Positions 4,031 through 62,744 of a DNA stretch of 64,000 nt are shown piece after piece. Within the stretch, counting starts at the first letter, position 1, and every line of letters begins with the position of its first letter. The notes under the pieces are model-generated. The model saw only the letters and a list, made by a program, of their open reading frames with translations, searched no databases and was not told the DNA's origin. The position numbers and the translations under genes were made by a program. This DNA comes from Candidatus Levyibacteriota bacterium (GTDB lineage Bacteria; Patescibacteriota; Microgenomatia; Levybacterales; UBA12049): contig JBDRBE010000004.1 of the NCBI GenBank assembly GCA_043823085.1, forward strand, positions 342,780 to 406,779. Reading direction: 5' to 3'.

Positions 4031-4081
4031 ATATCTTCCTATTCTATCATCTTGCCCTCAAAAATCAAGGGATACTAAATT

Positions 4082-4110
4082 AGCTTCGCAAGGCGACGCC
4101 TTGCGAAGCT
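4082..4110. repeat. 29-bp near-perfect palindrome AGCTTCGCAAGGCGACGCCTTGCGAAGCT. A second copy is inside folA at 62503-62531.
   Basis: Seen directly in the sequence. Intergenic, between the pepA start and tRNA-Leu. Confidence 0.6.
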
Positions 4111-4179
4111 AAAATTTGAATAGTGCCATCGAAGCCAATTAAAGTTAAAGCTTGTTATGTTATAATTATTCCAGTCTTA

Positions 4180-4302: not shown

Positions 4303-5160
4303 ATGATCTGGCTTTTATTTGCATTTTTAACAGCCCTTTTTGAGTCCTTAAAGGATATCTTAAGCAAACACAATCTCAAAAAGATTGACGAATATTCCGC
4401 TTCTTTGGCTTTCCGTTTATCTTTTGTTTTTCTCCTGCCATATTTATTATTTTCGAAAATCCCAACCCTCAATAATCTTTTTTTTATCGCTTTAATTTTT
4501 GCTGTTCCAATAAATATTGCAACCGCAATTCTTTATATGAAAGCGTTAAAGAATTCAGATGTATCATTGAGCATCCCCCTTACAGCTTTTACGCCTTTGT
4601 TTCTTTTAATCACTTCCCCTTTGATTATTCACGAATTTCCTTCTTTTTTAGGCCTTTTGGGGGTGCTTTTAATAGTTTTTGGTTCATATCTTCTAAACCT
4701 CCAAGAAAGACATAAAGGATTTTTTGTTCCTTTTAAGGCCTTACTTAAAGAGAAAGGCCCTCGCTTTATGCTCCTTGTCGCTTTTTTGTGGAGTATCGGT
4801 TCAAACTTCGATAAAATCGGAGTTTTAAATTCCTCCCCTATTTTTTGGGTCATTGCCGTAAATTTCTGCTCAACTTTAATTTTAATTCCAATTGTTTTCA
4901 AAAGAAATAAAAATGCTGCAATAACTCTTCCCAAAAACTTAAGTCTTCTCACAATAAGTCTTGCTAGCGCTTTAAGTTTGGCTTTCCAAATGACTGCAAT
5001 ATCCCTGGCTCTTGTCTCTTATGTTATTTCTATAAAAAGAACAAGTATCCTAATAACCATTATTTTAGGAGCGCTAGTATTTAGAGAAAAAGGCTTGAAA
5101 GAAAGATTAATTGGAGGCATAATAATGATTGCAGGCATCATTTTAATCGCATTTTCATAA
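4303..5160 (+). CDS. EamA/DMT family transporter
   Basis: 285 aa with about 10 TM helices and two EamA-like halves. Confidence 0.65.
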   Translation: MIWLLFAFLTALFESLKDILSKHNLKKIDEYSASLAFRLSFVFLLPYLLFSKIPTLNNLFFIALIFAVPINIATAILYMKALKNSDVSLSIPLTAFTPLFLLITSPLIIHEFPSFLGLLGVLLIVFGSYLLNLQERHKGFFVPFKALLKEKGPRFMLLVAFLWSIGSNFDKIGVLNSSPIFWVIAVNFCSTLILIPIVFKRNKNAAITLPKNLSLLTISLASALSLAFQMTAISLALVSYVISIKRTSILITIILGALVFREKGLKERLIGGIIMIAGIILIAFS

Positions 5161-5289
5161 GGTGACCAAGCTAGTTCACCTTAGAGGTGGTCTAGATAGG
5201 CCACCTCGCTCCTACTCCATCCCCTGCATTATTAAAATTTCTGTTGAAAGCAACAAAAAATATTTCGATTGGCTAAAAGGTCAAATTTC

Positions 5290-5880: not shown

Positions 5881-6003
5881 ACCCCCTAACCATTTAGAAT
5901 TTTTGAAGTTGGATATCTTTGACATATTTGATCTTGAATATTTGAATAATTGACATCTTTATATCTAGAATTCAAGAAAATCACACTTCTAATCTCAAGA
6001 ATT
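5881..6003. repeat. partial copy of the palindromic intergenic element family (TCAAGA/GATATC/TCTAGA words, ..AATCACACTTCTAATCTCAAGAATTCTAAT terminus)
   Basis: Shares terminus and word composition with the elements at 42151, 43544, 48677 and 62074. Lacks the CAGCTG core. Confidence 0.45.
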
Positions 6004-9233: not shown

Positions 9234-9980
9234 ATGATAAAAACCAAATCTGAGATTAAAAAAATTGAAAGGGCTTGCCAAGTTACCGATGAAACCTTTG
9301 ACCATATATTGAAAAAGATTAAGGTTGGAATTTCCGAAAGACAAGTTTCACTGGAAATTCAAAGATTCATCAAAAAATTTGGCGCCAAACTTTCTTTTCG
9401 GCCGATTATTGCTTTTGGAAAAAATTCCGCCAACCCTCATCATAAACCAAACAACACTATATTGAAAAATGGCGATTTTATAAAACTCGATTTTGGCGCA
9501 AAAGTCGACGATTACTGCTCCGACATGACCCGAACTGTTTTTATGGGAAAAGCAAGCCGCAGGCAAAAAAAAATTTATCAAACAGTCCTTGCTGCCCAAA
9601 AAAAAGCCATTAACTATCTTGAGTGGAGTCATTCTGAGCAGAGCGAAGAATCTCGAATGTCAGCGAGATCCCTCGGCCTTCGGCCTCAGGATAACATTCG
9701 GGGAAAAGATGTCGATAAGGCGGCAAGAGATTATGTTATTTCCAAAGGCTATCCCTCCTTCCCCCACGGCTTAGGTCATGGCATTGGAAAAAAAGTCCAT
9801 CAAAAACCAAAGCTTTCTCCAAAATCAAAACATTTTTTAAAACCCGGCATGGTGTTTTCCGTTGAGCCCGGAATATACCTAAGAAGCTTTGGTGGAGTTC
9901 GAATCGAAGACACGGTTGTTTTAGAAAAAACGGGCCTTCGCATCTTGACCAAAAGCACAAAAAGAATAATTGAACTTTAA
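9234..9980 (+). CDS. M24 family metallopeptidase (Xaa-Pro/methionine aminopeptidase-like) carrying an in-frame repeat insertion
   Basis: M24 C-terminal pita-bread motifs (DFGAKVDDYCSDMTRT, HGLGHGIG, VEPGIY, EDTVVL). A foreign 70-odd-nt segment, 9625-9697, is translated as HSEQSEESRMSARSLGLRPQDN. Confidence 0.7.
   Translation: MIKTKSEIKKIERACQVTDETFDHILKKIKVGISERQVSLEIQRFIKKFGAKLSFRPIIAFGKNSANPHHKPNNTILKNGDFIKLDFGAKVDDYCSDMTRTVFMGKASRRQKKIYQTVLAAQKKAINYLEWSHSEQSEESRMSARSLGLRPQDNIRGKDVDKAARDYVISKGYPSFPHGLGHGIGKKVHQKPKLSPKSKHFLKPGMVFSVEPGIYLRSFGGVRIEDTVVLEKTGLRILTKSTKRIIEL
9625..9697. repeat. GTCATTCTGAG..CTCAGGATAAC hairpin-type small element inserted in-frame in the M24 peptidase gene
   Basis: Sequence gtcattctgagcagagcgaagaatctcgaatgtcagcgagatccctcggccttcggcctcaggataac. 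Imperfect terminal inverted repeats and an internal GGCCTTCGGCC hairpin. GC-rich relative to the gene. Related GTCATTCTGA/GTCATGCTGAA words occur at 51078 and 56864. Confidence 0.5.
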
Positions 9981-11184: not shown

Positions 11185-11203
11185 ACACCCCCGAGGTGTA
11201 ACA
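11185..11203. repeat. REP-like hairpin (ACACCCCCGAGGTGTAACA), upstream flank of the RAYT gene
   Basis: Inverted repeat stem with a CCCGAGG loop. Same family as 11881-11902 and 33841-33877. Confidence 0.55.
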
Positions 11204-11212
11204 AGTACCATA

Positions 11213-11878
11213 ATGTGCTATTATTTAATTATGCCTTATCGAACAACTCCACTTGTTAATAACGGTCTTTATCATATATATAACCGTGGCGTGGAAAAAA
11301 GACAAATCTTTATGAAAGACCGAGATTATCAAAGATTTCTCCAAACTCTCTACTATTATCAGTTTAGCGGTCCTAAAGCTCGTTTTTCTACGCATAAGAA
11401 ATTCAAAAATAAAAATTTTGATAAAAATCCTAAAATCGTGGAAATTATCTGTTACTGTTTAATGCCAAACCATTTTCATTTATTACTGAAACAATTAAAG
11501 GATAATGGCATTCAGGAATTTTTGAGTAAAGTAGCAAATAGTTATGCAAAATATTTCAATACTAAGTACAAACGAGTTGGTCCACTTTTACAAGGTCAAT
11601 TCAAAGCGGTAACTGTAGAAACCGATGAACAATTAGTCCATTTATCAAGATACATACACCTAAATCCATTCACAGCTGAAATTACAAAAGATTGGGAGAA
11701 CTTTCCCTACTCTTCCATTCAAGAGTTTATTGAGGATACAACTTCCAAAATTTGCGCCATTGAACAAATTTTAAATTTATTTACAAATCAAGCAGGATAT
11801 AGATCGTTTATTTCCGATAACCAATCATACGCTTTGGAACTTAGTAAAATCCAACATCTTTTAATAGACGAAGAATAA
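11213..11878 (+). mobile_element. REP-associated tyrosine transposase (RAYT; IS200/IS605 TnpA-like Y1 HUH transposase)
   Basis: HUH motif in CYCLMPNHFHLLL. Conserved YHIYNRG, SYAKYFN, RVGPLLQGQFKA and the catalytic Tyr region RYIHLNP. Flanked on both sides by REP hairpins. Confidence 0.75.
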
Positions 11879-11880
11879 TT

Positions 11881-11902
11881 GTTACACTCCCGAGGTGTAA
11901 CA
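11881..11902. repeat. REP-like hairpin GTTACAC-TCCCGAG-GTGTAAC, downstream flank of the RAYT gene
   Basis: Perfect 7-bp stem. Followed by a duplicated TTGACA..TATGAT promoter. Confidence 0.6.
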
Positions 11903-11926
11903 GTTGACAAGGAAAACTTTTGTGGT

Positions 11927-12400
11927 ATGATACCTAGCATGCCATTTGCTCCTGTAGAAATAGCAACCATAAACCTTGCTAACGAGCTCCGTGAAGGAGA
12001 TAAATTGCGTGATGCAAAAAAAATAAGAGATGAACATGATAGCGCATGGAAGACTCTTGGCGGAAAATTTGGAATCGCTGTTACCGACGAACAAATGGTT
12101 AATGTATTAAAAGCAACGCTCAACATGTTGCGATTTGGTTTAGAACGAGGACTTGGTAGCCCTCCTTCCGAAAAAACTATCGAAGAATTAGAAAAGGCGC
12201 AGGATCTTAGTACCACAAAAGGAAGACAAGCTGCAAATGCGTTTTTTGAACGATTAGCAGGAATTTATGCATATAAAAAATATCCTCCTCTTGACCCAAT
12301 TGAGAACGAAAGAAAATGCATAGCATGTGAAATCGCAGCAATTTCTTTACGCAAACCTAGAGAATTTGACAAACCGCCTGTTTTAAAGTATACTCCTTAA
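11927..12400 (+). CDS. hypothetical protein
   Basis: The ORF track begins inside the REP/promoter. The likely start is MIPSMPF at 11927, after the duplicated promoter. Confidence 0.4.
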   Translation: MIPSMPFAPVEIATINLANELREGDKLRDAKKIRDEHDSAWKTLGGKFGIAVTDEQMVNVLKATLNMLRFGLERGLGSPPSEKTIEELEKAQDLSTTKGRQAANAFFERLAGIYAYKKYPPLDPIENERKCIACEIAAISLRKPREFDKPPVLKYTP

Positions 12401-12590
12401 TACAATTAAATATAAATGCGCTTGACCGAAGTCACGATTCGGGAGCAGAAGGCCAAAATGCCTTACGGAAAAGTTTCAGCCGTATAAAAAGAAACATTCG
12501 GTGTCGCCAAGTTACAACACTGAGCTTGTCGAAGTGCGGAGCCGGACCAAGAGCCTTAGAGAAAAAAGCTTTAAGGAAATAAGGATGGGA

Positions 12591-12610
12591 CCGCGGGAAG
12601 CGGTTTTTTG
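12591..12610 (+). terminator. intrinsic terminator candidate (CCGCGGGAAGCGG plus T6)
   Basis: GC stem, GGAA loop and a U-tract. Confidence 0.45.
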
Positions 12611-12623
12611 TTGAAAAAAACTA

Positions 12624-12683
12624 CCTCTCGTTCCTTGTTCACTATTTTTGTAGTGGATAACGAACGGGAGGTTTTTTGTTGTT
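12624..12683 (+). terminator. strong intrinsic terminator: long hairpin CCTCTCGTTCC..GGAACGAACGGGAGG plus TTTTTTGTTGTTT
   Basis: About 12-bp near-perfect stem followed by a T-rich tract. Tandem with the previous terminator. Confidence 0.55.
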
Positions 12684-12798
12684 TATTTAACGAACTTTTG
12701 TGAGTTTAGAAAACAACAAACCCTTCCGAAGCGAGCATTCGTTTGCGTGGACGTAGCCCACGAAACGAATTCAAGCGAAGGAGGGTAAATTGAAAAAT

Positions 12799-12919
12799 GG
12801 TGGCTGTAGCTTAAATGGTTAGACCTGCCCGCCATCGGCTTTTGCCGAAGGCATATGCGCAGGCGGGGCATTAGGTCGTGGGCTTAAAAGTTGCGGGTTC
12901 AAATCCCCTCAGCCACCCA
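12799..12919 (+). tRNA. tRNA-like gene with a roughly 45-nt insertion in the anticodon/variable region (candidate intron-containing or aberrant tRNA)
   Basis: Acceptor GTGGCTG/CAGCCAC with discriminator C. Canonical U8 A9. D-arm TAGCTTAAATGGTTAGAC like elongator tRNAs. T-arm GCGGG-TTCAAAT-CCCCT. Total about 120 nt. The helix TGCCC/GGGCA encloses a 35-nt segment containing the CGGCTTTTGCCG hairpin. No clean U33 anticodon loop could be assigned. Confidence 0.4.
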
Positions 12920-12940
12920 AGGGAAAGGAAATAAATAATT

Positions 12941-24343: not shown

Positions 24344-24460
24344 TATTGCAGACTGTATTGCAAACTGTTATTGACAAACATACCTATACCTTTATACACT
24401 GTAAACAAGAAAGAAATTGCCCCCTTAAAAATTAAGGGGATGTTTTTGGTGAATTAACAT

Positions 24461-25705
24461 ATGAGGCGTTTCTCAAGAGCTCAAATTTTAGCTATTATTA
24501 CCACCATTATCATTGTTGGAGCTATTCCTCTCACCGTCTTTCTCGCCCGCCAACAGCAGGAAATAAGACAAAGAGCCTCCGGAAGAGAAAATGCACACTG
24601 CAACACTGGTGATACTAATTTTCCAGGCGGATATGATTATGTTGCCGGCGGACTTGATACTTATGTCCTTGCTTCTAATGGCGCTTGCAACGAAACAGGC
24701 GCAATTCCAGGAGTCCTTGTGCATGCCGAAGCCCTTCATAATGGTCCATGCGATAGAAACAATGAAGCAAATGATTTTCCTGGTTGTACAACTAGAGAGT
24801 TCATTCCACGGACGGAAATTGATGGGGAAGGATGCGGAATGAGTGGGAATGGCAGAACTGATATACATGGAGAAACCTATCTTTTTCCTCTTAATTGCGG
24901 GCACAATAATTTTCGAATCTCCGTTATAATTTCCCCAGATTATAAATTTACAGGATGGAATATTAACGGCGGGACATGTAGCACCACTGAATTAAGTCAG
25001 GCAGAAATAGAAGTACTAAATGGCGGCGATAAAATTTTGAGAATTTTTTATCAGCCGCCGACTGCACCAACTCCAACTCCTCCAACAGCAACTGCCACCG
25101 TCACTCCTCCAACAGCAACTGCCACCCCAACAAAAACCCCTACTCCAACGCCGACTGGAGTCCTCCCAACAGCGACTCCAACGAAAACTCCTACTCCTCC
25201 AACAACTGCAACTGTGACGCCGCCGGTTTATCCAACTCCCGAACCTTTCTATGTCTCTTTCGTCTGTAACAATTGTCAAGCAGCCCAAGTTCCGACTGCA
25301 ACGCCAACGCCTACAATAGCTGTAACTTCGCCCTCTTACTATCCACCGCTACCTCCAGCTACAGCTTGGCCGAGTGCCACACGTGTTCCAACAGTAACTC
25401 GTACTCCAACGCCAACACCGACGCGCACGCCAACACCGACGCCAACTCGTGGTCCAACGCCAACACCGACGCGCACGCCAACACCCGGCCCGACCGGCAC
25501 GCCAAGGCCGTCTTACTTTGTTGTAATTACAACAAAACCAACAATAGTTATAACAAGTAAAGTTGGCGGCCCAACTCAAGCTGCTCAAGGAGGAAGTCCT
25601 GCGCCAACTCTGCCGCCGACAGGAAGCATTAGTACACCTGTTGCCATAGGAATTGGCGGAATTATCTCTGTTATAATAGGAAGTATTATTTTCTTATTGT
25701 TATAA
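24461..25705 (+). CDS. cell-surface protein with an LPXTG-type sorting signal (LPPTGS plus a hydrophobic tail), a Cys-rich domain and a long Thr/Pro linker
   Basis: N-terminal signal anchor. PTATPTPTPPTATATV repeats. C-terminus TLPPTGSISTPVAIGIGGIISVIIGSIIFLLL. Confidence 0.6.
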   Translation: MRRFSRAQILAIITTIIIVGAIPLTVFLARQQQEIRQRASGRENAHCNTGDTNFPGGYDYVAGGLDTYVLASNGACNETGAIPGVLVHAEALHNGPCDRNNEANDFPGCTTREFIPRTEIDGEGCGMSGNGRTDIHGETYLFPLNCGHNNFRISVIISPDYKFTGWNINGGTCSTTELSQAEIEVLNGGDKILRIFYQPPTAPTPTPPTATATVTPPTATATPTKTPTPTPTGVLPTATPTKTPTPPTTATVTPPVYPTPEPFYVSFVCNNCQAAQVPTATPTPTIAVTSPSYYPPLPPATAWPSATRVPTVTRTPTPTPTRTPTPTPTRGPTPTPTRTPTPGPTGTPRPSYFVVITTKPTIVITSKVGGPTQAAQGGSPAPTLPPTGSISTPVAIGIGGIISVIIGSIIFLLL

Positions 25706-25711
25706 ACAAGT

Positions 25712-26482
25712 TTGAAAGCTCGCTTGAAAACTTTGTTTTCAAGCTTCGCTTATAAAATTATGAAATTACGATCAAAAAAAGGTATTTTTTCAATTTTTAT
25801 TCTTCTGCTTTTAATTGGCGGCGTGGCGCTAACGGTTTATCAAGCAAGAAAACCCCAGGAAATTCGCCAAAGAGCTCAAGAAGCCCAACCATGCACAAAA
25901 GGAACGGTCGTTTGCCAATGGAACCCCCAAACTCTCCCCTCCGGCATTACTTCCTCCCAGCTGCTATATAAGTTAGAAATTTTTGATACTGGCGATGATA
26001 AAATTATTGCGTATCAGGATAATAATGTTAGCTATAGCACCACCTCAATAACAAAATCCTACCCTGTAAATTCCTATCCATTCTACGCGGATCATAAATA
26101 TGCCTGCCGGATAACACCAAGATTTGTCATCTCTGGTCAGACCATCCTCGGAAATCCACAAACATCGACCCCTCCACAAGCTATCTGTTCTTCGCAAGCC
26201 GCCACGGCAACCCCGGTTCCCGTAATTGGTGCTCCAACCGTCACTCCCGTGGCCGTCGCGACCGGCACGCCAGTACCAGGAAGTGGACAATGCTATGCAG
26301 ACTGTACCACTAACAAAGCTTCATGTTCCTCCCCCTACAAATGTCTTTCTTTTTGCCCAAATGGCAAGTTTTATGGTCCCAACTCTAGCAATTATTGTAG
26401 TTCTGACGTTTTCACATATAAATGCGCCAATGATGGCTGTCCAGACTTCCCCACCTGCGACTGCGGTGGATCCCAAGACTAA
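25712..26482 (+). CDS. secreted Cys-rich protein, N-terminal paralog of the preceding gene
   Basis: Shares the anchor motif TV(Y/F)xAR..QEIRQRA with the 24461 protein. Multiple Cys. No LPXTG. Confidence 0.5.
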   Translation: MKARLKTLFSSFAYKIMKLRSKKGIFSIFILLLLIGGVALTVYQARKPQEIRQRAQEAQPCTKGTVVCQWNPQTLPSGITSSQLLYKLEIFDTGDDKIIAYQDNNVSYSTTSITKSYPVNSYPFYADHKYACRITPRFVISGQTILGNPQTSTPPQAICSSQAATATPVPVIGAPTVTPVAVATGTPVPGSGQCYADCTTNKASCSSPYKCLSFCPNGKFYGPNSSNYCSSDVFTYKCANDGCPDFPTCDCGGSQD

Positions 26483-27301: not shown

Positions 27302-27904
27302 ATGGTTACAGAACTAGCTCCCAAATGTTTGCCAGTAGAAGAACAAATTGCAAGGATAAGGAAAGATTACAAGTTGCCTAGATTGACAGTAACTAATAAT
27401 ACTCTGGAAATTATTGCTAGACTTGTTGTAGCTATTGATAAATTGCCCCATATGTTATCACCAGGAGAGAAACGGGCTCTACTTGTGACAGGCTACTATA
27501 CTCGTGCCGATGATTATCCGGACAATTATTGTCCTTCCGTAGAAGAAGTTGGAAAAACTTTAGGAGTTAATGAGGAAAAAGTTTGGGATTATTTTAAATC
27601 AACGGTCGATAGTAAAACCCTAGGACCAATACTAGAGAATCTTTCGAACGCCGGTAAAACTTATCACCTTAACGGTGATCTTAGAGGTATTGATGCAAGA
27701 GTTTTTGAGATCGTAAAAAATAATCCTCTATTAGGCGTTAAAGAATTAACAAGTCGCTTAAGAGTAAATAAGACAAATTTTGCTAAACTTGAAACAATAA
27801 TACGTTCTCTGAAAAGAATAAAAGAACACCTTGATTGTCACGGGCAAAATTATGATGATCTCCCAATCTTAAACTCAACTACATCCCCGTCTTTTACGAT
27901 ATAA
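27302..27904 (+). CDS. hypothetical protein with a sigma region-4-like HTH
   Basis: HTH segment LSPGEKRALLVTGYY..PSVEEVGKTLGVNEEKV. 3' end overlaps the converging ychF. Confidence 0.35.
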   Translation: MVTELAPKCLPVEEQIARIRKDYKLPRLTVTNNTLEIIARLVVAIDKLPHMLSPGEKRALLVTGYYTRADDYPDNYCPSVEEVGKTLGVNEEKVWDYFKSTVDSKTLGPILENLSNAGKTYHLNGDLRGIDARVFEIVKNNPLLGVKELTSRLRVNKTNFAKLETIIRSLKRIKEHLDCHGQNYDDLPILNSTTSPSFTI

Positions 27905-28932
27905 TCCCTGCCTTCCATTCTTGCTTTTCCCAATTCTCTCGCTCTCTTCCAGCCGCCTGACTGAACAAAATCATCAAAAAAAACAGCTTCGGCTTTAATA
28001 AAGTTTGCAATAAAATCCGTGTGAATCACTCCCGCCGCCTCAACAGCTTTCATCCCCTTTTGAATAGTCCAGGCTCTAACTTCCTTTTCGCCGGCTGTCA
28101 AGAAAGAAATTAAATTAAGAGTTTCATAGGCCTTTTTAACTAACCTCTCAAGCCCTTGCTCTTTTAGTCCTAACTCCAAAAGATATTCTTTTTGTTCACT
28201 TTCGGATAACTCCGATAATTCCTGTTCTATTTTTGCGCTGATTGCAATTGTGTCTTCTCCGAAATTATTTTTTAAATCACTCTCGTCAACATTGGCAACA
28301 TAAATTATCGGTTTAAAAGTTAAAAGCGCTAAATCTTTGACCAATATTTTTTCTTCGTCATTTAACTTACACTCTCTTGCAAGCTTTCCCTCATCCAATG
28401 TTTTTTTTAATTTTCCAATTGCACTAAATCTGATTATTTCATCTTTGGATGCGATTTTTTTGGGTCCTTGCTGTTTTTCCAGTGTTTGTAAATCAGCCAA
28501 CATAAGTTCTGTATTTACAATTGATTTATCCGATTCCGGATTTGGTTCGCCGCCAACATGAATTACATCTTTGTCTTTAAAATGCCTGACAACTTCACAA
28601 ATTGCATCAACTTCACGTATATGTGATAAAAATTTATTTCCCAAACCCTGCCCTTTGGCCGCTCCTTTCACCAAACCGGCAATATCGACGAACCGAACGG
28701 TAGCCGGTACAACCGGCGGACGTGAGGTCCTGAGCGAAGTCGAAGGATTTCCCGCGACAATATCTGCTAGCACCTCTAACCTTTTATCCGGCACCGGAAC
28801 AATTCCAACATTTGGTTCAATTGTCGCAAAAGGAAAATTCGCTACAAACGCAGCCTGCTTTTTCAACAAAGCATTGAACAATGTACTTTTTCCAACATTC
28901 GGCAACCCAACAATCCCAATTGCTAAAGCCAT
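27850..28932 (-). CDS. ychF: ribosome-binding ATPase YchF (Obg family GTPase)
   Basis: G1 motif GIVGLPNVGKST. YchF-type TGS C-terminal domain (VRAWTIQKG..GDVVEF). Confidence 0.85.
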   Translation of the reverse strand: MALAIGIVGLPNVGKSTLFNALLKKQAAFVANFPFATIEPNVGIVPVPDKRLEVLADIVAGNPSTSLRTSRPPVVPATVRFVDIAGLVKGAAKGQGLGNKFLSHIREVDAICEVVRHFKDKDVIHVGGEPNPESDKSIVNTELMLADLQTLEKQQGPKKIASKDEIIRFSAIGKLKKTLDEGKLARECKLNDEEKILVKDLALLTFKPIIYVANVDESDLKNNFGEDTIAISAKIEQELSELSESEQKEYLLELGLKEQGLERLVKKAYETLNLISFLTAGEKEVRAWTIQKGMKAVEAAGVIHTDFIANFIKAEAVFFDDFVQSGGWKRARELGKARMEGRDYIVKDGDVVEFKIGRSS

Positions 28933-29169
28933 TTTATAATTTTATCACAAATTATAAATATAAAAAAACTATCCCATAATATTGCTTTTTCTACTTTTTC
29001 GTGGGATAAAAGCGCAAAGGAATACCTTTCTCTCTACAATAAACTTATTGAACCTACGCCTTAAATCTCTTTGATATAGCAGATAAAATATCCCAAAAAC
29101 AACTTTTTCTACAAACAAAAAACTAATTAATTTAAGAAAGCTATTCGGTTCCAAAATCTTCCCCCCTTT

Positions 29170-33840: not shown

Positions 33841-33877
33841 TTGTTACACCTCTTGTTACACCTCGGGGGTGTAACAA
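33841..33877. repeat. REP-like hairpin TTGTTACACC-TCGGGGG-GTGTAACAA, with a partial extra half-copy
   Basis: Inverted orientation relative to the copies flanking the RAYT gene. Intergenic, between the fabZ-like gene and cysS. Confidence 0.6.
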
Positions 33878-33881
33878 AATT

Positions 33882-35321
33882 TTAGAGCTTTTTTACTTCC
33901 GAACCACTTTCGGTGTCCGTAACTTCCCAGCCGAGTTTTTTAATTCTCTGGCGAAGACCGTCCGCCAAATGAAATCTTTTTTGATATCGTAACTCTTCCC
34001 TTTCTTTAACCATTTTCATAATTTCCTCTGGGACTTTCTCTTGTTGAACATTGTTTTTCGTTTGAACTGATTTAAGGTTCAATCCAAGCACTTCATCCAT
34101 TTTATATAGGCTATTTGCTTTCGCAGACTTTGGCGCATTTGAGCGAATCATGTCCCAAACAGCAGCCATTGCTTTTGGCATATTTAAATCATCGTTTATC
34201 GCCTCCAAAAACTTCTGCTCGAACTCTGAACAGATAATTTTTGATTCTTCTAATTCATGCTTGTCCGCCGAAGCCTTGGCGAAGGCGGAATTCATAATTC
34301 CTAATTCTTTCCGCAAGTTTTCCAGCGCATTTTGCGCCGCTTCCAAGGCTTCCCAAGTAAAATTCATTTTTTGTTTGTAGTGAACAGTCATTGCCAAATA
34401 TCGAAAAGAAAGAGGATCAAATTTACGCTTTTCAATTTCCGATAAAACATAAACATTTCCTTTTGACCGTGACATTTTTTCATTATCAACAAGTAAATAT
34501 CCTCCGTGTACCCAATAATTAACAAACTTTTGTCCGGTCGCCCCTTCAGATTGCGCAATTTCATCTTCGTGATGAGGAAAAATTAAATCCTCTCCGCCTG
34601 TATGAACATCGATCGTAATCCCCAATTCATTAATCGCCATCACGCTACATTCAATATGCCAGCCGGGAAAACCCTCTCCCCACGGACTTTCCCATTTCAT
34701 AAGTCTCGCACCTTCCGCTTTTTTCCAAAGCGCAAAATCAATACTGTCTTTTTTATCTGTTTCAACAGAAACGCGGACTGCTTTTAATAAATTATCCATT
34801 TTGTCCAAAGTGTTTCCAGAAAGTTTTCCATAATCCTTGAATTTTTTAACGTCAAAATAAACTGTGCCATCAACCTCGTATGCCAAACCTTTTTTGAGAA
34901 GAACTTTTATAATTTCAATCATTTCTTTAACATTTTCCGAGGCTTTAGGAAATTTGTTGGCCTTTTTAATATTGAGTTTTTCTTCGTCTTCTAAATATAG
35001 CTCCGTGTAGTGCTCTGAAATTTCCTGCGGAGTTTTACCTTCTTTTAGCGCCTCTTCTATTATCGGATCGATTTGATTATCTTGATTTTCCCCGGGCCGC
35101 CTCATGTGTCCGACATCGGTAATATTTTTAACGTGCTTTACTTTGTAGTCATTATATTCCAAAGTCCGGCGCAAAAAATCAGCTGTTAAATATGTACGCA
35201 TATTGCCGATATGAACCTCCCGATAAACTGTGGGCCCGCAAGTATACATGCCGACATTGGGCGGATTGATGGACACAAACTCCTCGATTTTTCTTGAAAG
35301 TGTGTTATAAATTCTTAACAT
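33882..35321 (-). CDS. cysS: cysteinyl-tRNA synthetase
   Basis: HIGN motif. KMSRSKGN (KMSKS) motif. Zinc-binding CGPTVY. Confidence 0.9.
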   Translation of the reverse strand: MLRIYNTLSRKIEEFVSINPPNVGMYTCGPTVYREVHIGNMRTYLTADFLRRTLEYNDYKVKHVKNITDVGHMRRPGENQDNQIDPIIEEALKEGKTPQEISEHYTELYLEDEEKLNIKKANKFPKASENVKEMIEIIKVLLKKGLAYEVDGTVYFDVKKFKDYGKLSGNTLDKMDNLLKAVRVSVETDKKDSIDFALWKKAEGARLMKWESPWGEGFPGWHIECSVMAINELGITIDVHTGGEDLIFPHHEDEIAQSEGATGQKFVNYWVHGGYLLVDNEKMSRSKGNVYVLSEIEKRKFDPLSFRYLAMTVHYKQKMNFTWEALEAAQNALENLRKELGIMNSAFAKASADKHELEESKIICSEFEQKFLEAINDDLNMPKAMAAVWDMIRSNAPKSAKANSLYKMDEVLGLNLKSVQTKNNVQQEKVPEEIMKMVKEREELRYQKRFHLADGLRQRIKKLGWEVTDTESGSEVKKL

Positions 35322-40957: not shown

Positions 40958-41521
40958 ATGGCAGCACCACAAGAAGCACCAAAAAAAAATTGTATTTCAG
41001 AAGGAATTTCTCCAGCAAGTCTTTTTTTAGCGGAAGTTACAAGTTCATTTGGAGGCCCGATTAATGCAAGGCAAATTTGTAACCCAGAACTAAAATGCAA
41101 TTCTGCTACCGATATAAGACTTTGTCGAACACACGGTGTCGGTCAATTACCTGAAATAATTGTAATCTCTTCCGATTTAAAAGAAATAAATGAATCAGAA
41201 AACAATTCCTTATCTGTTTTTGTTACGTATGTTAATGAGTTTTGTATTGATCTCTCGGGTTGTCTAGCTAAAAGAACTCCCTTAATTAAACTAGATCTTA
41301 TCGTAAGACGCGATGAAGTTTTTTTTCAATTAGCAAGAATTCGCGATACTTCTTGGATAAGAATTTTACCGGAGGGTAGAATCTGTTTTTCAAGCAAGGG
41401 AACGGTTTTAGGAATAAAAGAAGACTCTGGTAAATTTACAATTTCAGCAATTGATATTGATCCTTTATTGATTGAAGAGGTTTTTGACTACGATGGCAAA
41501 CTAGATCTTTCTGAAAATTAA
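40958..41521 (+). CDS. hypothetical Cys-containing protein, probably co-transcribed with paralog C
   Basis: Starts 3 nt after the stop of C. No recognisable domain. Confidence 0.4.
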   Translation: MAAPQEAPKKNCISEGISPASLFLAEVTSSFGGPINARQICNPELKCNSATDIRLCRTHGVGQLPEIIVISSDLKEINESENNSLSVFVTYVNEFCIDLSGCLAKRTPLIKLDLIVRRDEVFFQLARIRDTSWIRILPEGRICFSSKGTVLGIKEDSGKFTISAIDIDPLLIEEVFDYDGKLDLSEN

Positions 41522-42150
41522 TACTCACTCCTTCCTTCCATGGCGCGTTGGAGAGTTAATTCGTCGGCGTATTCAATATCTGAACCGGTGGGCAGTCCCC
41601 TGCCAATTCGTGTTATTGTTAATTGTTGATTGTTGATTGTTGATTGTTGGCGAAGTTGCTTCGCCAAGTACATCGCCGTCGCCTCCCCTTCCATGGTCGG
41701 ATTCGTCGCCAGTATTATCTCGCGGACTAATGCTGAACTCGAACGCGGAACCGCGCCGACTCGCTCTAGCAGTTGGTGAATATAAATTTCATCCGGGCCG
41801 ATATTGTTGAGCGGATCAATCCTCCCATGGAGGACATGATAAACGCCGTTATACCTGCCGTTTTTTTCCAGCGCCAAAACATCCAAGGGCTCTTCAACCA
41901 CACAAATAGTTGAATCATCTCTTTTCTCATCAGAACAAATATTACAGGGGTCTTGCTCCCCTATCATAAAACATTTCGAACATAAGACCGTATCTTTTTT
42001 CAAATTGATAATAGATGAAGAAAATCTATCCAGTTCACCTTGAGGAACATGCAGTAAATAAAATGTTAGCCTCTGCGCTGTTTTTGGCCCAATTCCCGGC
42101 AGTCTTTCAAAGGACTCAATCAAATTCGCAATTGCTTTTGGGACTCTCAT
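41518..42150 (-). CDS. recR: recombination protein RecR, carrying an in-frame heptamer-repeat insertion
   Basis: HhH segment GIGPKTAQRL. C4 zinc finger CSKCFMIGEQDPCNIC. Toprim domain. (ATTGTTG)x5 at 41615-41649 encodes QQSTINNQQLT. Confidence 0.85.
   Translation of the reverse strand: MRVPKAIANLIESFERLPGIGPKTAQRLTFYLLHVPQGELDRFSSSIINLKKDTVLCSKCFMIGEQDPCNICSDEKRDDSTICVVEEPLDVLALEKNGRYNGVYHVLHGRIDPLNNIGPDEIYIHQLLERVGAVPRSSSALVREIILATNPTMEGEATAMYLAKQLRQQSTINNQQLTITRIGRGLPTGSDIEYADELTLQRAMEGRSEY
41615..41649. repeat. ATTGTTG heptamer tandem repeat (x5) inside the recR coding sequence
   Basis: Seen directly in the sequence. The same repeat is inside proS at 49581-49615. Confidence 0.7.
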
Positions 42151-42295
42151 ATTGGAATTCTTGAAGTCAGATTTCCTTGACGTTTTTGATCTTGATTCGT
42201 CAGCTGACGAATTGAAGTCTTGAAGTCTTGATATCTAGAAATCAAATTATCAAGAAATCAAGTTCAAGAAAATCCCACTTCTATCTTCAATGATT
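42151..42295. repeat. palindromic intergenic element (CAGCTG core, TCAAGAAAATCCCACTTCT terminus)
   Basis: Between recR and prs. Confidence 0.6.
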
Positions 42296-49371: not shown

Positions 49372-51079
49372 TTACTTCGTCTATTGTTAACATTTCTGTT
49401 TCGCTTTTAGCTCTTTCTTTGCATTCAATTTTATCACCGGTTTTGCCTGAAATTACTAAACGTATTGGACAACCGATTAAATCGCAGTCGGCGAATTTTT
49501 CCCCTGCCGAAATATCTCTATCGTCATAAAAAACCTCAATCCCCGCATCTTGCAATTTTTCATAAATTTCATCCGCCATTTTGTTGATTGTTGATTGTTG
49601 ATTGTTGATTGTTACGAGGTGTACCAAGTATGGTGCAACCGCTTCCGGCCACTTAATCCCTTTATCATCAGAGTGAACTTCAACAACCGCCGCCATTGTC
49701 CTTGCAATTCCAATTCCATAACAACCCATGTAATATGGTTTTTCTTTTCCGTTTTCGTCTGTAAAAGTGGCGCCTTTCATTTTTGAAGAATAGTGAAATC
49801 CAAGCTGAAAAATATTTCCAACCTCAATCCCCCGTTTTTCTATCAGTTTTTGACCGTTTGGCGCGGCGTATCCTGCTTTTGCAAGCTTGAACTCATAAAA
49901 CTTTTCAGGCTTGGGCAAGTCCCTGCCAAAATTTACATTAATATTGTGAATATTGGTTTTATTCGAACCCATTTCAAAATTCTTTCTTCCTCTCATTGAC
50001 TCATCCATAAAAATTCTGACATCTTTTGGTAAATTCAAAAGCCCGGCATATCCCACTTCTGCTCCTGTTATTTTTCTGACAGTCTCGGCCGACGCAAGCT
50101 TTAAAGAATAAACTTTGGCAACATGCGAGAGCTTAGTTTCATTTATCTCAAAATCTCCTCTGACTGCCGCGGCAATAACTTTTCCATTCTCGTCTTCAAA
50201 GAGAAGTGTTTTTGTGGTTTGTTCAACCGGAATATCAAGAAACTTCGCCAGCTCAAAAACTCCAATAATCCCTTTGCCCTCAACTTCTTCCATCGGCCTC
50301 TCTTCTTCACCGCTTTCTATTTGGTTTAATGAAAGTTTTGCAACGTCTTCATGGACACAATAACTTCCATCCTCTGTTGTCAAATACCTGCTTTCTCCGC
50401 TTTCATGTTCCACCACAAATTCATGACAATATTCCCCCCCGATATAACCGTTATCCGATTCAACAATAATAGTTTTCAACCCCAAACGCTCAAAAATTTT
50501 AGTGTAAGTTTTTTTCATTTTTTCATACTCTTTTTTGAAATCTTCCTCTGTTGTATGAAAAGAATATCCGTCTTTCATCACAAATTCTTTAACTCGCAAA
50601 AGCCCCCCCCGCGGCCGCAGTTCATCCCGAAACTTGGTAGAAAATTGGTAGAGATTAAAAGGCAAATCTTTGTAGCTTATCTGAAATTTACGAACTAAAT
50701 CAACCAGCATTTCCTCTGCTGTCCCACCCAAAACAAATTCCATTTCGTTTCTGTCTTTAACTTTTACAAGTTCAAAACCAACCGAATTTGTGCGGTTTGT
50801 TTCTTTCCATAAAGCAACCGGATGAAGAATTGGTGCTGTGATTTCCTGCGCACCTGCTTTATCCATTTCAACTTTTATAATATCTTGAATTTTCTGGTGG
50901 ACTTTTTGGCCAAGCGGTAAAAAATAATAACGCCCTGCTGTACTTTCGCGGATAAATCCTGCCTTATAAAGAAGTTTATGGGAAGTAATAACCGCATCCT
51001 TTGGCGCTTCCCGAATTGTTCTTCCAAACAGTTTTGAATATCTCATAACAAAAGTATAGCACAAATCCGCGATTGTCAT
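49343..51079 (-). CDS. proS: prolyl-tRNA synthetase (bacterial type), carrying an in-frame heptamer-repeat insertion
   Basis: Class II motifs and an anticodon-binding C-terminus. (TTGTTGA)x4 at 49581-49615 encodes TINNQQSTIN in the linker. Confidence 0.9.
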   Translation of the reverse strand: MTIADLCYTFVMRYSKLFGRTIREAPKDAVITSHKLLYKAGFIRESTAGRYYFLPLGQKVHQKIQDIIKVEMDKAGAQEITAPILHPVALWKETNRTNSVGFELVKVKDRNEMEFVLGGTAEEMLVDLVRKFQISYKDLPFNLYQFSTKFRDELRPRGGLLRVKEFVMKDGYSFHTTEEDFKKEYEKMKKTYTKIFERLGLKTIIVESDNGYIGGEYCHEFVVEHESGESRYLTTEDGSYCVHEDVAKLSLNQIESGEEERPMEEVEGKGIIGVFELAKFLDIPVEQTTKTLLFEDENGKVIAAAVRGDFEINETKLSHVAKVYSLKLASAETVRKITGAEVGYAGLLNLPKDVRIFMDESMRGRKNFEMGSNKTNIHNINVNFGRDLPKPEKFYEFKLAKAGYAAPNGQKLIEKRGIEVGNIFQLGFHYSSKMKGATFTDENGKEKPYYMGCYGIGIARTMAAVVEVHSDDKGIKWPEAVAPYLVHLVTINNQQSTINKMADEIYEKLQDAGIEVFYDDRDISAGEKFADCDLIGCPIRLVISGKTGDKIECKERAKSETEMLTIDEVIKRLCQGRG

Positions 51080-51146
51080 TCTGACCTAAACCATCTTATA
51101 GTCCATCTTGACTTCCAGCCCGAAAGGACTATAATAACGGTTAGAT

Positions 51147-56860: not shown

Positions 56861-56960
56861 ATTCTCTCCATGTCATGCTGAACTTGTTTCAGCATCTCGA
56901 TTTATTCACTGTGCAATGAGATTCCGAAATAAATTCGGAATGACACTACATGATTTTTTT
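56861..56960. repeat. hairpin-rich intergenic block (GCTGAA-CTTG-TTTCAGC; ATTCCGAA-ATAA-ATTCGGAAT) flanked by GTCATGCTGAA..GAATGACAC
   Basis: Two perfect hairpins between pgl and rseP. The flanking motif is related to the 9625 element. Confidence 0.45.
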
Positions 56961-56962
56961 AA

Positions 56963-58192
56963 TTATGGACCAAAAATATTTTTGCCGGAAATTAATCTGG
57001 TTAAATCATGAAAAGTTATTAAGGCAATTAAAGTCAAAAGTAATGCCATACCAATCGCGTGAGAGTAGCTTTCGAATTTGGCCGGAACTCTTCGCCGAGT
57101 TGCTACTTCTATCAGAATAAAAAACAATCTTCCACCGTCCAAAGCCGGAATTGGCAAGATATTAAAAAAAGCAAGCGAAATCGACAATATTCCGGCGAGA
57201 TTTAGAACCTGTAAAATTTTTTCTTTAAGATCGGGTATTTTAACAATATTTCCAACCAAAGAGTATATTCCTACCGGACCGGCAACGCTTTGGGAAATAG
57301 GCTCGGCGGTTTTTTCTTTTATCGAAATACCAATTAGCTGTCCCATGATGTTGAAATTGTAAGCCAGAAGATTTAATGGATGAGTAAATCCGGAAAATAT
57401 TTTTTGAGGAACAGTTTTATAATCTAAAACTACCATTGAAACCGGAAAAAAACTAATTCCGATTGCTCCCTCGTTTTTGGGAGGATTTATTCTTGGTGTA
57501 ATTTTTGCAAAATAATTTTTATTATTTTTTGCATCCTGCCATGCAACTGTAATTTCTTTTCCTTTATTTTTACTAATAATTTCGGCAAAATAATTCACAT
57601 CATTAACTTTTTGTCCATTTATAGAAAGAATCTTTGAAAAAGATTTAATTCCCGCAATTTCTGCCGGCGAGTTTTTGGCAACATCGGCAATAATTATATC
57701 CGAAGAGTTAGTTTGAGAAACGGCAAAAAATTTATGATCGCCCAAAAGCGGGAGCTGGGTTTTAAAATCGGAAATAAATAAAAATGCGTAGAAAATAACT
57801 GCGGCAAGAACTGTATTCATAAAAACGCCGGCCACTACAATCACCGCTCTTTGTCCGACCGGTCTTGCAAAAAACGCACGGTCTTTATTCTTAATTCTTA
57901 ATTCCTGATTTTTAATTCCCGGCCTGCCGCTACCGGCCTCATCCTCGCCATAAAGTTTTACAAATCCGCCAATCGGCAGCCAATTAATTGAATAAATAGT
58001 CTCGCCCTTTTTTATGCCAAACGCTCTTGGAGGAAGTCCAAACCCAAATTCTTCAACTTTTATCCCTAATTTTTTTGCTACAAAAAAATGCCCAAACTCG
58101 TGAATCAACACTAAAATCGAGAGAATAACCAAAAAAACAACGGCCGTAATTATCATAAATTTTGACTTATATATCGCGGGGAGCCTTTTCAT
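56963..58192 (-). CDS. rseP: RseP-type site-2 protease (M50) with a PDZ domain
   Basis: HEFGH zinc motif in TM1. PDZ domain. LDGG motif. In-frame insert IKNQELRIKNKD from the TAATTCTTAATTCCTGATT repeat at 57886-57921. Confidence 0.8.
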   Translation of the reverse strand: MKRLPAIYKSKFMIITAVVFLVILSILVLIHEFGHFFVAKKLGIKVEEFGFGLPPRAFGIKKGETIYSINWLPIGGFVKLYGEDEAGSGRPGIKNQELRIKNKDRAFFARPVGQRAVIVVAGVFMNTVLAAVIFYAFLFISDFKTQLPLLGDHKFFAVSQTNSSDIIIADVAKNSPAEIAGIKSFSKILSINGQKVNDVNYFAEIISKNKGKEITVAWQDAKNNKNYFAKITPRINPPKNEGAIGISFFPVSMVVLDYKTVPQKIFSGFTHPLNLLAYNFNIMGQLIGISIKEKTAEPISQSVAGPVGIYSLVGNIVKIPDLKEKILQVLNLAGILSISLAFFNILPIPALDGGRLFFILIEVATRRRVPAKFESYSHAIGMALLLTLIALITFHDLTRLISGKNIFGP

Positions 58193-58340
58193 GAGGTGAC
58201 GTCTTCACTAGAGTCGCCGAAGGCGACCGTATCCCGAGTCCCGCCGATGAGGCGGGACGGAGGGACGCTTGCGTTTGAAGACTCGCCGAACTGGAAAGGC
58301 GACCTAAGCGATATTCCCTGAACAAGAAAACTTTTATACC
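58193..58340 (-). promoter_or_regulatory. GC-rich structured 5' leader upstream of rseP, with promoter TGGTATAAAAG
   Basis: In gene orientation: GTCCCGCC-TCATC-GGCGGGAC (8-bp stem) and GTCGCC-TTCG-GCGAC (UUCG tetraloop). Preceded by a solo MITE arm and a TATAAA -10. Confidence 0.3.
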
Positions 58341-62213: not shown

Positions 62214-62744
62214 TCATCTCTCCAATTCCAAAAACTTATATTTATGTCCTTCCCACTTTCCTTCTTTTTCAAAAACTATTTTTTTGAATATTGATTCGTA
62301 TTCCGGGAAAAAAGTGTCGGCGTCTTTAACAGCATCTACAATTGTTAAATATAATTTATCCGTTAAACCAATCGCCTGCTGATAAATCTGTCCCCCCCCG
62401 ATAATAAATATTTCTTTTTTATTGTCATGCCAAACTTGTTTCGGCATCTCACGAGATTCTGAAGCCATTTTCAACGCTTCATCCAAAGAACTCGTAATTT
62501 TTAGCTTCGCAAGGCGTCGCCTTGCGAAGCTAGAATCTCGCGAAATAACTATGTTCGTCCTATTGGGAAGAGGATGGCCAATCGACTCGAAGGTTTTTCG
62601 CCCCATTATAATAGTATGGCCACATGTTTTTTCGCGAAACCGCTTCATATCTTCGGGGATTTGCCACAACAATTTATTATCGTTCCCAATTCCTCTGTCT
62701 TTTGAAATCGCTACGATGATGCTGATTTTTGAATTATGAATCAT
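62214..62744 (-). CDS. folA: dihydrofolate reductase, carrying an in-frame palindrome insertion
   Basis: DHFR motifs (IVAISKDRGIG, LLW, MGRKTFESIG). The 29-bp palindrome at 62503-62531 encodes SSFARRRLAKLKI. Confidence 0.8.
   Translation of the reverse strand: MIHNSKISIIVAISKDRGIGNDNKLLWQIPEDMKRFREKTCGHTIIMGRKTFESIGHPLPNRTNIVISRDSSFARRRLAKLKITSSLDEALKMASESREMPKQVWHDNKKEIFIIGGGQIYQQAIGLTDKLYLTIVDAVKDADTFFPEYESIFKKIVFEKEGKWEGHKYKFLELER
62503..62531. repeat. 29-bp palindrome AGCTTCGCAAGGCGTCGCCTTGCGAAGCT inside folA. Sister copy at 4082-4110.
   Basis: Seen directly in the sequence. GC-rich in an AT-rich gene. Confidence 0.6.

Follow-up and report, generated by a model that had tools for sequence, protein, structure and literature searches.

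The 64-kb window of DNA analysed here, part of a 431-kb contig from a metagenome-assembled genome of Candidatus Levyibacteriota (candidate phyla radiation, CPR; Microgenomates), contains a gene of the M24 metallopeptidase family in which a short, GC-rich palindromic segment is read through in frame. This raises the question of what the segment is and how it came to lie within a coding sequence. The segment is very likely an inserted dimer of inverted units of the CGTC-tagged repetitive extragenic palindromic (REP) type, probably neutral selfish DNA, accommodated in a loop of the encoded enzyme.

An earlier note on this DNA had described positions 9625-9697 as a GC-rich segment with inverted repeats and an inner hairpin, read in frame inside the M24 gene, and the sequence matches this description, with GTCATTCTGAG / CTCAGGATAAC as terminal inverted repeats and a GGCCTTCGGCC hairpin between them; the GC content is 54% in the inserted element, against 39.6% in the M24 gene and 37.7% in the window. 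However, the unit is not a single hairpin with terminal repeats, as that note had it, but a dimer whose two arms fold independently, each with its own tag, hairpin and tail. The element proper (9628-9695, 68 nt) consists of arm A, a spacer and the inverted arm B (Table 1), which form a heterodimer with the tags pointing outward. The arms follow a common scheme, comprising a GTC or GTT tag, an outer stem AT-N-CT/AG-N'-AT, a tandem G.A/A.G, an inner stem GC or GGCC, a 3-nt loop and a CTC tail. The stem of arm A, ATTCTGAGC/GCGAAGAAT, has 9 positions, two of which are the tandem G.A, and the arm is an exact match to a 27-nt pattern, GTCATnCTGAGCnnAGCGAAGn'ATCTC, that recurs across phyla. Arm B has ATCCT/GGGAT as its outer stem, including one T.G pair, retains the G.A tandem and has GGCC/GGCC as its inner stem, giving 11 positions; similar arms were found at four other loci (L116, L134, L074 and L125). 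The first G and the last C of the spacer lengthen the pairing between the CTC and GAG triplets of the dimer. The element is read as SHSEQSEESRMSARSLGLRPQDN, about 22 additional residues, and two of the three forward frames, including that of the M24 gene, are open across it. No target-site duplication was found around 9628-9695 (flanks ..GAGTGGA and ATTCGG..).

The host open reading frame (ORF) is 100% identical to an NCBI protein encoded on the 431-kb contig and annotated as an M24 family metallopeptidase of Ca. Levyibacteriota, and it matches the Pfam family Peptidase_M24 (PF00557) with E=1.3e-63. The name 'M24 aminopeptidase' in the earlier note is supported at the level of the Pfam family only. 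All five metal-ligand positions (D86, D97, H182, E211 and E225) are retained in columns that are invariant in the orthologue alignment.

Comparison with homologues identifies the segment as an insertion. The solved prolidases 3q6d and 1wn1 align in two blocks, with 2-3 residues opposite query residues 130-153 (about 24). In the 27 closest homologues the site, which lies between '...AINYL' and 'I.AK.VDK', holds from 3 to 31 residues. The alignment of M24 orthologues had been proposed in the earlier note as a check; in it, about half of these homologues have a loop of 6-10 residues, often xSLIxNHKS, the inserted peptides of close homologues are mutually unrelated, and the peptide of the query is conserved in none. 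That note had also named a combination that would count against a repeat, namely a conserved peptide and no further copies; the opposite was found, with arms present elsewhere in the window and in other genomes. In a rough neighbour-joining tree computed without the loop region the short and long forms are interleaved. Thirteen metagenomic relatives were inspected, among them every one of the eight whose identity is 45% or more, and an insert is present in one (L220) only; the matches to the other 67 are about 615-690 nt long, too short to include the insert. The AlphaFold2 model built from the orthologue alignment has a mean predicted local distance difference test score (pLDDT) of 91.5 and a predicted template modelling score of 0.88, and low confidence is confined to blocks within residues 131-150 (pLDDT 65 and 52), between the helices 109-134 and 157-170. 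Given the known architecture of M24 enzymes, this loop would be on the outer, helical side of the pita-bread structure, away from the metal centre.

The arms belong to a widely distributed family. With 23 of its bases fixed, the 27-nt arm pattern GTCATNCTGAGCNNAGCGAAGNATCTC was matched by 92 stretches from IMG/VR and at least 120 from the GTDB species-representative genomes, spanning at least 15 phyla as well as phage contigs. The hosts include Chloroflexota, Acidobacteriota, Saccharibacteria, Nitrospirales, Omnitrophota, Bdellovibrionales, Bacteroidales/Pedobacter, Ignavibacteria, Clostridia, Planctomycetales, Verrucomicrobiota, Alpha-, Gamma- and Deltaproteobacteria, Gemmatimonadota, Latescibacterota and Dehalococcoidia. 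The earlier note had suggested that the end motif resembles an intergenic palindrome known from other phyla; this resemblance is borne out by the distribution and by the agreement with a published superfamily described below.

The structure of the family is apparent from covariation. In 249 non-redundant copies of the first arm type, the free stem positions 6 and 22 form a Watson-Crick pair in 242 (TA 126, CG 99, GC 14 and AT 3), whereas the column frequencies, by a hand calculation from the copy counts, predict about 44%. In 232 of these copies the loop reads G-N-A, the base before GTC is T (199) or C (35) in 234, and an inverted partner arm lies 2-79 nt away (median 32) in at least 70. The inner stems of partner arms vary yet stay complementary (GC/GC, GGCC/GGCC, GCC/GGC). 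A second arm type, GTCATnCYGAAYTTRTTTCRGn'ATCTC, is that of an intergenic dimer and of a copy in a dihydrofolate reductase (DHFR) gene of the window; 33 non-redundant viral copies of it have Watson-Crick bonding at both free pairs without exception, and C (18) or T (13) precedes GTC in 31 of them. In all collected copies of the arms the tail is the 3-nt CTC, which pairs with the GAG of the partner in dimers.

On the viral contigs L310, L315 and L316 the variants gtcatttcgagcaaagcgagaaatct, gtcatttcgactgtagggagaaatct and gtcattcctgtggagacaggaatcc lie beside type-2 arms, several subtypes coexisting on one contig. One small phage head module (SPP1-type portal, HK97-type capsid and SU10-type adaptor) is shared by some 27 of the 92 IMG/VR stretches that carry arms, among them the viral loci L004, L013, L014, L016, L017, L025, L033, L037, L042 and L045, and in several of these stretches a single arm stands directly upstream of the same gene, before its ribosome-binding site and ATG (..GAATCTCataaagaaggag..ATGacaaagtcaaag).

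Arms of this architecture are also more frequent in the window than expected by chance. A strict test, requiring a GT[CT] tag, a stem that opens with AT and has 8 or more positions, a loop of 3-7 nt and a CTC tail, finds five (9628+, 9695-, 56872+, 56944- and 62424+) where 0.39 are expected, a count reached in none of 200 dinucleotide shuffles. This test was used in place of a loose structural scan permitting GTT tags and wobble pairs, which proved unspecific (6 observed, 6.5 in shuffles). The looser sequence pattern GTCAT-N10-30-ATCTC has 4 matches in the window against 1.5 expected, while the 11-mer GTCATTCTGAG alone, with 2 matches at no more than one mismatch against 0.68 expected, is not significant.

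The two arms at 56872 and 56944 form an intergenic dimer and have 8-bp stems and 5-nt loops; they read tGTC ATGCTGAA cttgt TTCAGCAT CTC on the plus strand and tGTC ATTCCGAA tttat TTCGGAAT CTC on the minus strand. The earlier note had pointed to related end motifs here, at about 56861-56960, and at 51078; the former is a true dimer of the family, but the latter is not a member. The motif at 51075-51085 has neither hairpin nor tail and adjoins a promoter-like TTGACT-17-TATAAT, and was dismissed as a chance match. Two further arms of the window lie within genes. That in the DHFR ORF is translated from the minus strand as SESREMPKQVWHD and accounts for about 12 residues missing from solved DHFRs, and a decayed arm in the ORF for YchF is translated from the minus strand as NPSTSLRT, about 6 residues more than in solved YchF. 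In the arms of the window other than those of the M24 gene the tag is preceded by T (tGTC).

A superfamily of CGTC-tagged REP sequences has been described (Di Nocera, De Gregorio & Rocco 2013, BMC Genomics 14:522; PMC3733652) in which a CGTC tag, often TGTC and also CCTC, is followed by an 8-9 bp stem that almost always opens with A-T and then T-A, a loop of 4-5 nt and an unpaired 3-nt tail, mostly CCA. These repeats occur mainly as inverted dimers, often heterodimers, with variable spacers, include in-frame intragenic copies, and are without a dedicated transposase (PMC3733652). Their reported hosts are Proteobacteria, Bacteroidetes/Chlorobi, Thermotogae and a spirochaete; CGTC-1 and CGTC-4 are equated with the Rickettsia palindromic elements (RPE) RPE-6 and RPE-4, and the dRS3 element of Neisseria with CGTC-1 (PMC3733652). 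Translated intragenic copies from Rickettsia conorii and others are listed as VIPAKAGI, SFPRKRES, CHSRESGNP and DSRFRGND, and the R. conorii dimers are oriented with the tags outward, as in SFLRKQES...DSRFRGND, beginning with the tag and ending in ...ND (= ...AATGAC) (PMC3733652). When back-translated, the published peptides agree with a unit of the GTCATTCCCGCGAAAGCGGGAATC type.

The M24 arms share with this superfamily the GTC tag, the A-T/T-A opening of the stem, the organisation as an inverted heterodimer with a 10-nt spacer, and the in-frame intragenic location, and the arms of the window dimer at 56872-56944, with their 8-bp stem and 5-nt loop, fit the published description fully. A loop of 5 nt, within the published range of 4-5 nt, is found in the window arms at 56872, 56944 and 62424. 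Unlike the described repeats, the M24 arms have stems of 9 or 11 positions with a tandem G.A and a G/A-N-A loop, and the host range differs as well, about five phyla in 2013 compared with the at least 15, including CPR and phage contigs, found for the arm pattern here. Judged from its sequence, the M24 element therefore fits the superfamily as its published text characterises it, and is assigned to none of the four named families.

Other known repeat systems are similar in part. Like the Rickettsia palindromic elements, the M24 element is an in-frame palindromic repeat in a housekeeping enzyme of a small-genome bacterium, several genes of the genome are affected, and each unit contributes about 8 residues and each dimer 20-30. 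As is typical of such elements, the host ORF is intact, the ligands are retained and the insert lies at what is a 2-3 residue turn in solved homologues. The differences are the host phylum, here represented by a low-GC CPR genome, and the classic RPE-1, which is about 100-150 bp long and unrelated in sequence; the link to Rickettsia is through the published statement that RPE-4 and RPE-6 are CGTC repeats and the translations listed with it (PMC3733652). REPIN/RAYT systems, in which a domesticated Y1 HUH transposase mobilises GTAG REP doublets, likewise consist of two inverted tagged hairpin units that can fold as one long hairpin and are dispersed, and a gene for a Y1 transposase is present in the window. 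However, the tag in the M24 element is GTC followed by AT, compared with GT[AG]G at the hairpin foot in REPINs, and the hairpins on either side of the window's Y1 gene are direct copies belonging to another family; elsewhere, the arms have no Y1 gene in their neighbourhood. The dRS3 elements of Neisseria are intergenic and act as integration sites for filamentous prophages via an IS110-type recombinase, and nothing of that kind was seen with the M24 arms. The architecture GTCAT-stem-loop-stem-ATC is common to dRS3 (a CGTC-1 repeat according to PMC3733652) and to these arms.

Several other classes were considered and rejected. A classical miniature inverted-repeat transposable element is not indicated, given the absence of a target-site duplication and of any insertion sequence with these ends in the window or in 212 arm-bearing loci. 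The core motifs of hammerhead and other self-cleaving ribozymes are absent on inspection, with no Rfam match; the R-box consensus of integron attC sites is not present on inspection; and no feature supports an intein or other spliced element.

The observations are best explained as follows. Each unit of the dimer comprises a 5' [C/T]GTC tag, a hairpin stem opening with A-T/T-A and a 3-nt CTC tail. A dimer of such units would have entered the M24 gene in the loop between the long helix (109-134) and the next one (157-170), and the gene is still translated, with about 22 extra residues, because the length of the insert keeps the frame and two of the three forward frames are open. The extra residues are probably disordered, to judge from the model, and the insert would persist as neutral selfish DNA because the loop tolerates it, as in the case of the Rickettsia palindromic elements. 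The family itself would owe its maintenance to something reading the arm in its folded state; the hairpin is preserved by compensatory changes, and the tag and tail are conserved in sequence. G-N-A triloops on a C-G pair and tandem G.A pairs are hallmarks of very stable DNA mini-hairpins. In the arms both are found on the tag strand only, and the complement has T-N-C loops and pyrimidine mismatches. The arm would be recognised as a folded hairpin, probably of single-stranded DNA, and a strand-transfer enzyme or gene conversion between copies may spread or homogenise the arms.

Several points weigh against this interpretation. The tag of arm B is mutated to GTT, and although T precedes it, arm A is preceded by A rather than by C or T; the M24 copy may be old and decaying. 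The arm loops of 3 nt (AGA and GAA) differ from the 4-5 nt, and the CTC tail from the mostly CCA tail, of the published superfamily. In the RNA folding that the earlier note had suggested as a check, the predicted energy of the M24 copy is indistinguishable from that of shuffled sequences (z = -0.7; z = -0.1 and -0.6 as DNA), and the case for a hairpin is made by the covariation within the family, not by the energy of this copy. The arm census covers the 64-kb window of the 431-kb contig, and recent mobility in this genome is beyond its reach. A scan of Joint Genome Institute metagenomes for the arm-spacer-arm junction of the M24 dimer gave no matches, and these metagenomes hold no second copy of the spacer. 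When 1818 ORFs of the 212 arm-bearing loci (1.65 Mb) were clustered all against all, no mobilising gene emerged near the arms, the clusters being the phage head module (portal, HK97-type capsid and adaptor) and common housekeeping genes.

Database searches with the element itself gave little. An Rfam search yielded nothing at the gathering threshold, the best result at E<=10 being a chance C/D-box match, and a literature search with 12-mers of the arm returned unrelated primers only.

The history of the insertion can be considered from the same loop in other genomes. All long-loop M24 orthologues examined (L213-L220) contain a palindrome at this site, but the sequences differ (Table 1). In the window, L215 and L220 the GTCAT sequence begins at nucleotide 29 past a conserved Gln codon and the frame [S/C]-H-S-E is shared. 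Two histories fit this common offset, either an old insertion overwritten by gene conversion or a preferred target nucleotide or existing copy. Under the first, a single ancient CGTC insertion in the ancestor of these three lineages was later gene-converted and precisely lost in relatives. Such a history is possible, though we incline away from it. The identical offset and frame speak for it, as does the occurrence of different subtypes at that offset (a type 1 heterodimer, a long single arm and a pristine type 2 heterodimer). However, the three M24 proteins are only about 58-60% identical and sequences without the insert branch between the carriers in the rough tree. Independent events are needed in any case, because unrelated palindromes fill the loop in other orthologues.

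As for the spread of the arms, a bolder proposal is that the GTCAT...ATCTC arms are one pan-bacterial, phage-borne family in which a widely shared machinery keeps tag, tail and fold nearly constant over at least 15 phyla and re-targets existing copies or a preferred sequence. We regard this as rather unlikely. If true, it would explain the different arm subtypes at the same nucleotide in three diverged CPR M24 orthologues, and the machinery, once identified, would answer what mobilises the 'transposase-less' CGTC repeats.

Selection on the M24 message itself, for example for a translational pause or an RNase site, with turnover of the sequence but conservation of the structure, would also place a palindrome at exactly this site in every long-loop orthologue examined despite the very different sequences. 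This explanation is improbable, as the insert is missing from about half of the close orthologues and from the distant relatives examined, the copies in the window and in L220 belong to dispersed repeat families with unrelated contexts and phyla, and the fold energy of the M24 copy is ordinary. Co-orientation of single arms with the neighbouring genes is only weakly in excess (29 vs 20 in genomes and 28 vs 20 in viral contigs, by crude ORF calls) and lends little support to a strand-specific role as RNA.

A Y1 (IS200-like) transposase is encoded 1.5 kb downstream of the element, its ORF containing the NHFH and YIHLNP motifs, and the element could in principle be a cognate REP or REPIN inserted by this enzyme, in the manner of RAYT/TIRYT-type transposases. 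HUH Y1 enzymes act on single-stranded DNA hairpins with a conserved 5' tag (PMC6006769), and the M24 loop of L216 holds CACCTCGGGGGTG arms, equal to the hairpin that flanks the Y1 gene of the window. Such an origin is nevertheless very improbable. The gene is enclosed by two copies, in direct orientation, of the hairpin TTACACC[C/T]CCGAGGTGTAA (11186-11204 and 11882-11903), the CACC[C/T]CCGAGGTG or CACCCCCGAGGTG hairpin, and not by GTCAT arms. Its motifs assign the enzyme to subclass 2.1 of Quentin et al. 2018 (PMC6006769), a group in which REPs have not been detected. When the 212 arm-bearing loci were searched by phmmer with the Y1 protein, no homologue appeared in any of them, and the CGTC repeats are reported to be without a dedicated transposase.

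Despite the reported lack of REPs in subclass 2.1, the Y1 gene with its hairpins looks like an IS200-like or REPtron-like unit with a small repeat family of its own. It is additionally bracketed by a duplicated promoter-like sequence, TTGACAAGGAAA..TGGTAT, and a third copy of TTACACC[C/T]CCGAGGTGTAA is located in the intergenic region upstream of the fabZ-like gene and cysS (33853-33877). L213 also has a homologous Y1 gene, with CACACCGGGTGTG hairpins on both sides of it (5160-5185 and 5901-5927).

An origin of the segment other than from a repeat element, as ordinary protein sequence or through faulty assembly, might be suggested by the uninterrupted ORF and the hydrophilic peptide. It is scarcely credible and is contradicted because the peptide is conserved in no orthologue, the DNA fits a 27-nt pattern occurring hundreds of times elsewhere, and related arms occupy the same site in independent assemblies from other samples.

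In-frame palindromic repeats are known already from Rickettsia and from REP surveys, and the class of mechanism is not new. As far as the literature consulted shows, the occurrence in a CPR bacterium, the breadth of at least 15 phyla plus phage contigs, and the nucleotide-exact recurrent occupancy of the M24 loop are new. Thus the palindromic colonisation of housekeeping enzymes in frame, a textbook oddity of Rickettsia, extends to CPR bacteria with tiny genomes, where the M24 peptidase, DHFR and YchF are all affected in a single 64-kb window, and the known range of the CGTC superfamily is widened correspondingly from about five phyla. The M24 loop, with at least six different palindromes in related genomes, represents a natural experiment in which site choice or survival and mobilisation are open to study. 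Such inserts also inflate 'hypothetical' peptide motifs and may mislead the alignment and annotation of CPR proteins.

Table 1. Repeat arms, host gene and associated features of the window, and contents of the corresponding M24 loop in related genomes
Feature	Position	Strand	Description	Basis
M24 host gene	9234..9980	+	Short-form M24 (Xaa-Pro peptidase-like) metallopeptidase, 248 aa, uninterrupted ORF	Pfam, NCBI match
Arm A	9628..9654	+	GTCATTCTGAGCAGAGCGAAGAATCTC; tag GTC, loop AGA, tail CTC	
Spacer between M24 arms	9655..9664	.	GAATGTCAGC, 10 nt	Sequence reading
Arm B	9665..9695	-	GTTATCCTGAGGCCGAAGGCCGAGGGATCTC (minus-strand reading); degenerate tag GTT, loop GAA, CTC tail	
Y1_Tnp (IS200-like) ORF	11213..11878		HUH motif NHFH, Y motif YIHLNP	Motifs
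Decayed arm in YchF ORF 27853..28941	28726..28751	+	GGTCCTGAGCGAAGTCGAAGGATTTC	Homologue comparison
Intergenic dimer	56872..56944	.	CGTC superfamily, spacer 19 nt	DNA fold z = -3.9
Single arm and truncated partner in DHFR ORF 62214..62744 (minus)	62424..62465	+	Arm GTCATGCCAAACTTGTTTCGGCATCTC, partner GAGATTCTGAAGC	Pattern scan
M24 loop, L220			Pristine type-2 CGTC heterodimer, TGTCATTCTGAACTTGTTTCAGAATCTCG-AGCAAAAGC-GAGATCCCGAAATAAATTCGGGATGACA	
M24 loop, L215			Long single CGTC-type arm	
M24 loop, L219			Decayed relative of the L215 arm	
M24 loop, L216			Arms CACCTCGGGGGTG / CCCCCGAGGTG	
M24 loop, L217			Arms AGGGTTCAACCCTT	
M24 loop, L218			Arms CCACCTCGAAGG	
M24 loops, L213 and L214			AT-richer arms, ATTATTCTTCGAG	

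The window contains further palindromes. A second repeat family consists of a near-perfect palindrome of 33-37 nt, TTAGCTTCGCAAGGCG-N-CGCCTTGCGAAGCTAA, with copies at 62499-62535 and 4080-4112, one of which is intergenic and located upstream of a tRNA-Leu gene while the other is read within DHFR as SFARRRLAKL; its half-sites have 4 matches in the window against 0.09 expected. Two GC-rich palindromes are translated in frame on the minus strand, TCCGCCGAAGCCTTGGCGAAGGCGGA (34264-34289) as SAFAKASAD in CysS (ORF 33882..35321) and TTGGCGAAGTTGCTTCGCCAA (41647-41667) as LAKQLRQ near the C-terminus of a RecR-like protein (ORF 41521..42234). An intergenic block of 119 nt with 61% GC (58185-58303) contains nested GC-rich hairpins (GTCGCCGAAGGCGAC and GTCCCGCCGATGAGGCGGGAC) with a minimum free energy of -58 kcal/mol as RNA, and its sole Rfam match is to Moco, with 18 bits against a threshold of 36.

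A region of about 530 nt (~12400-12940) lacks a long ORF and ends in a tRNA-like T-arm and acceptor (GCGGGTTCAAATCCCCTCAGCCACCCA). It was called neither by ARAGORN nor by Rfam at the gathering threshold, and may represent an unrecognised transfer-messenger RNA or a disrupted tRNA-like gene. Unrelated to the palindromes, Thr/Pro-rich low-complexity stretches (PTPTPTRTPTPTPT...) at 25043-25533 and 26171-26303, in the ORFs 24458..25702 and 25706..26479, account for most of the other GC-rich islands of the window.

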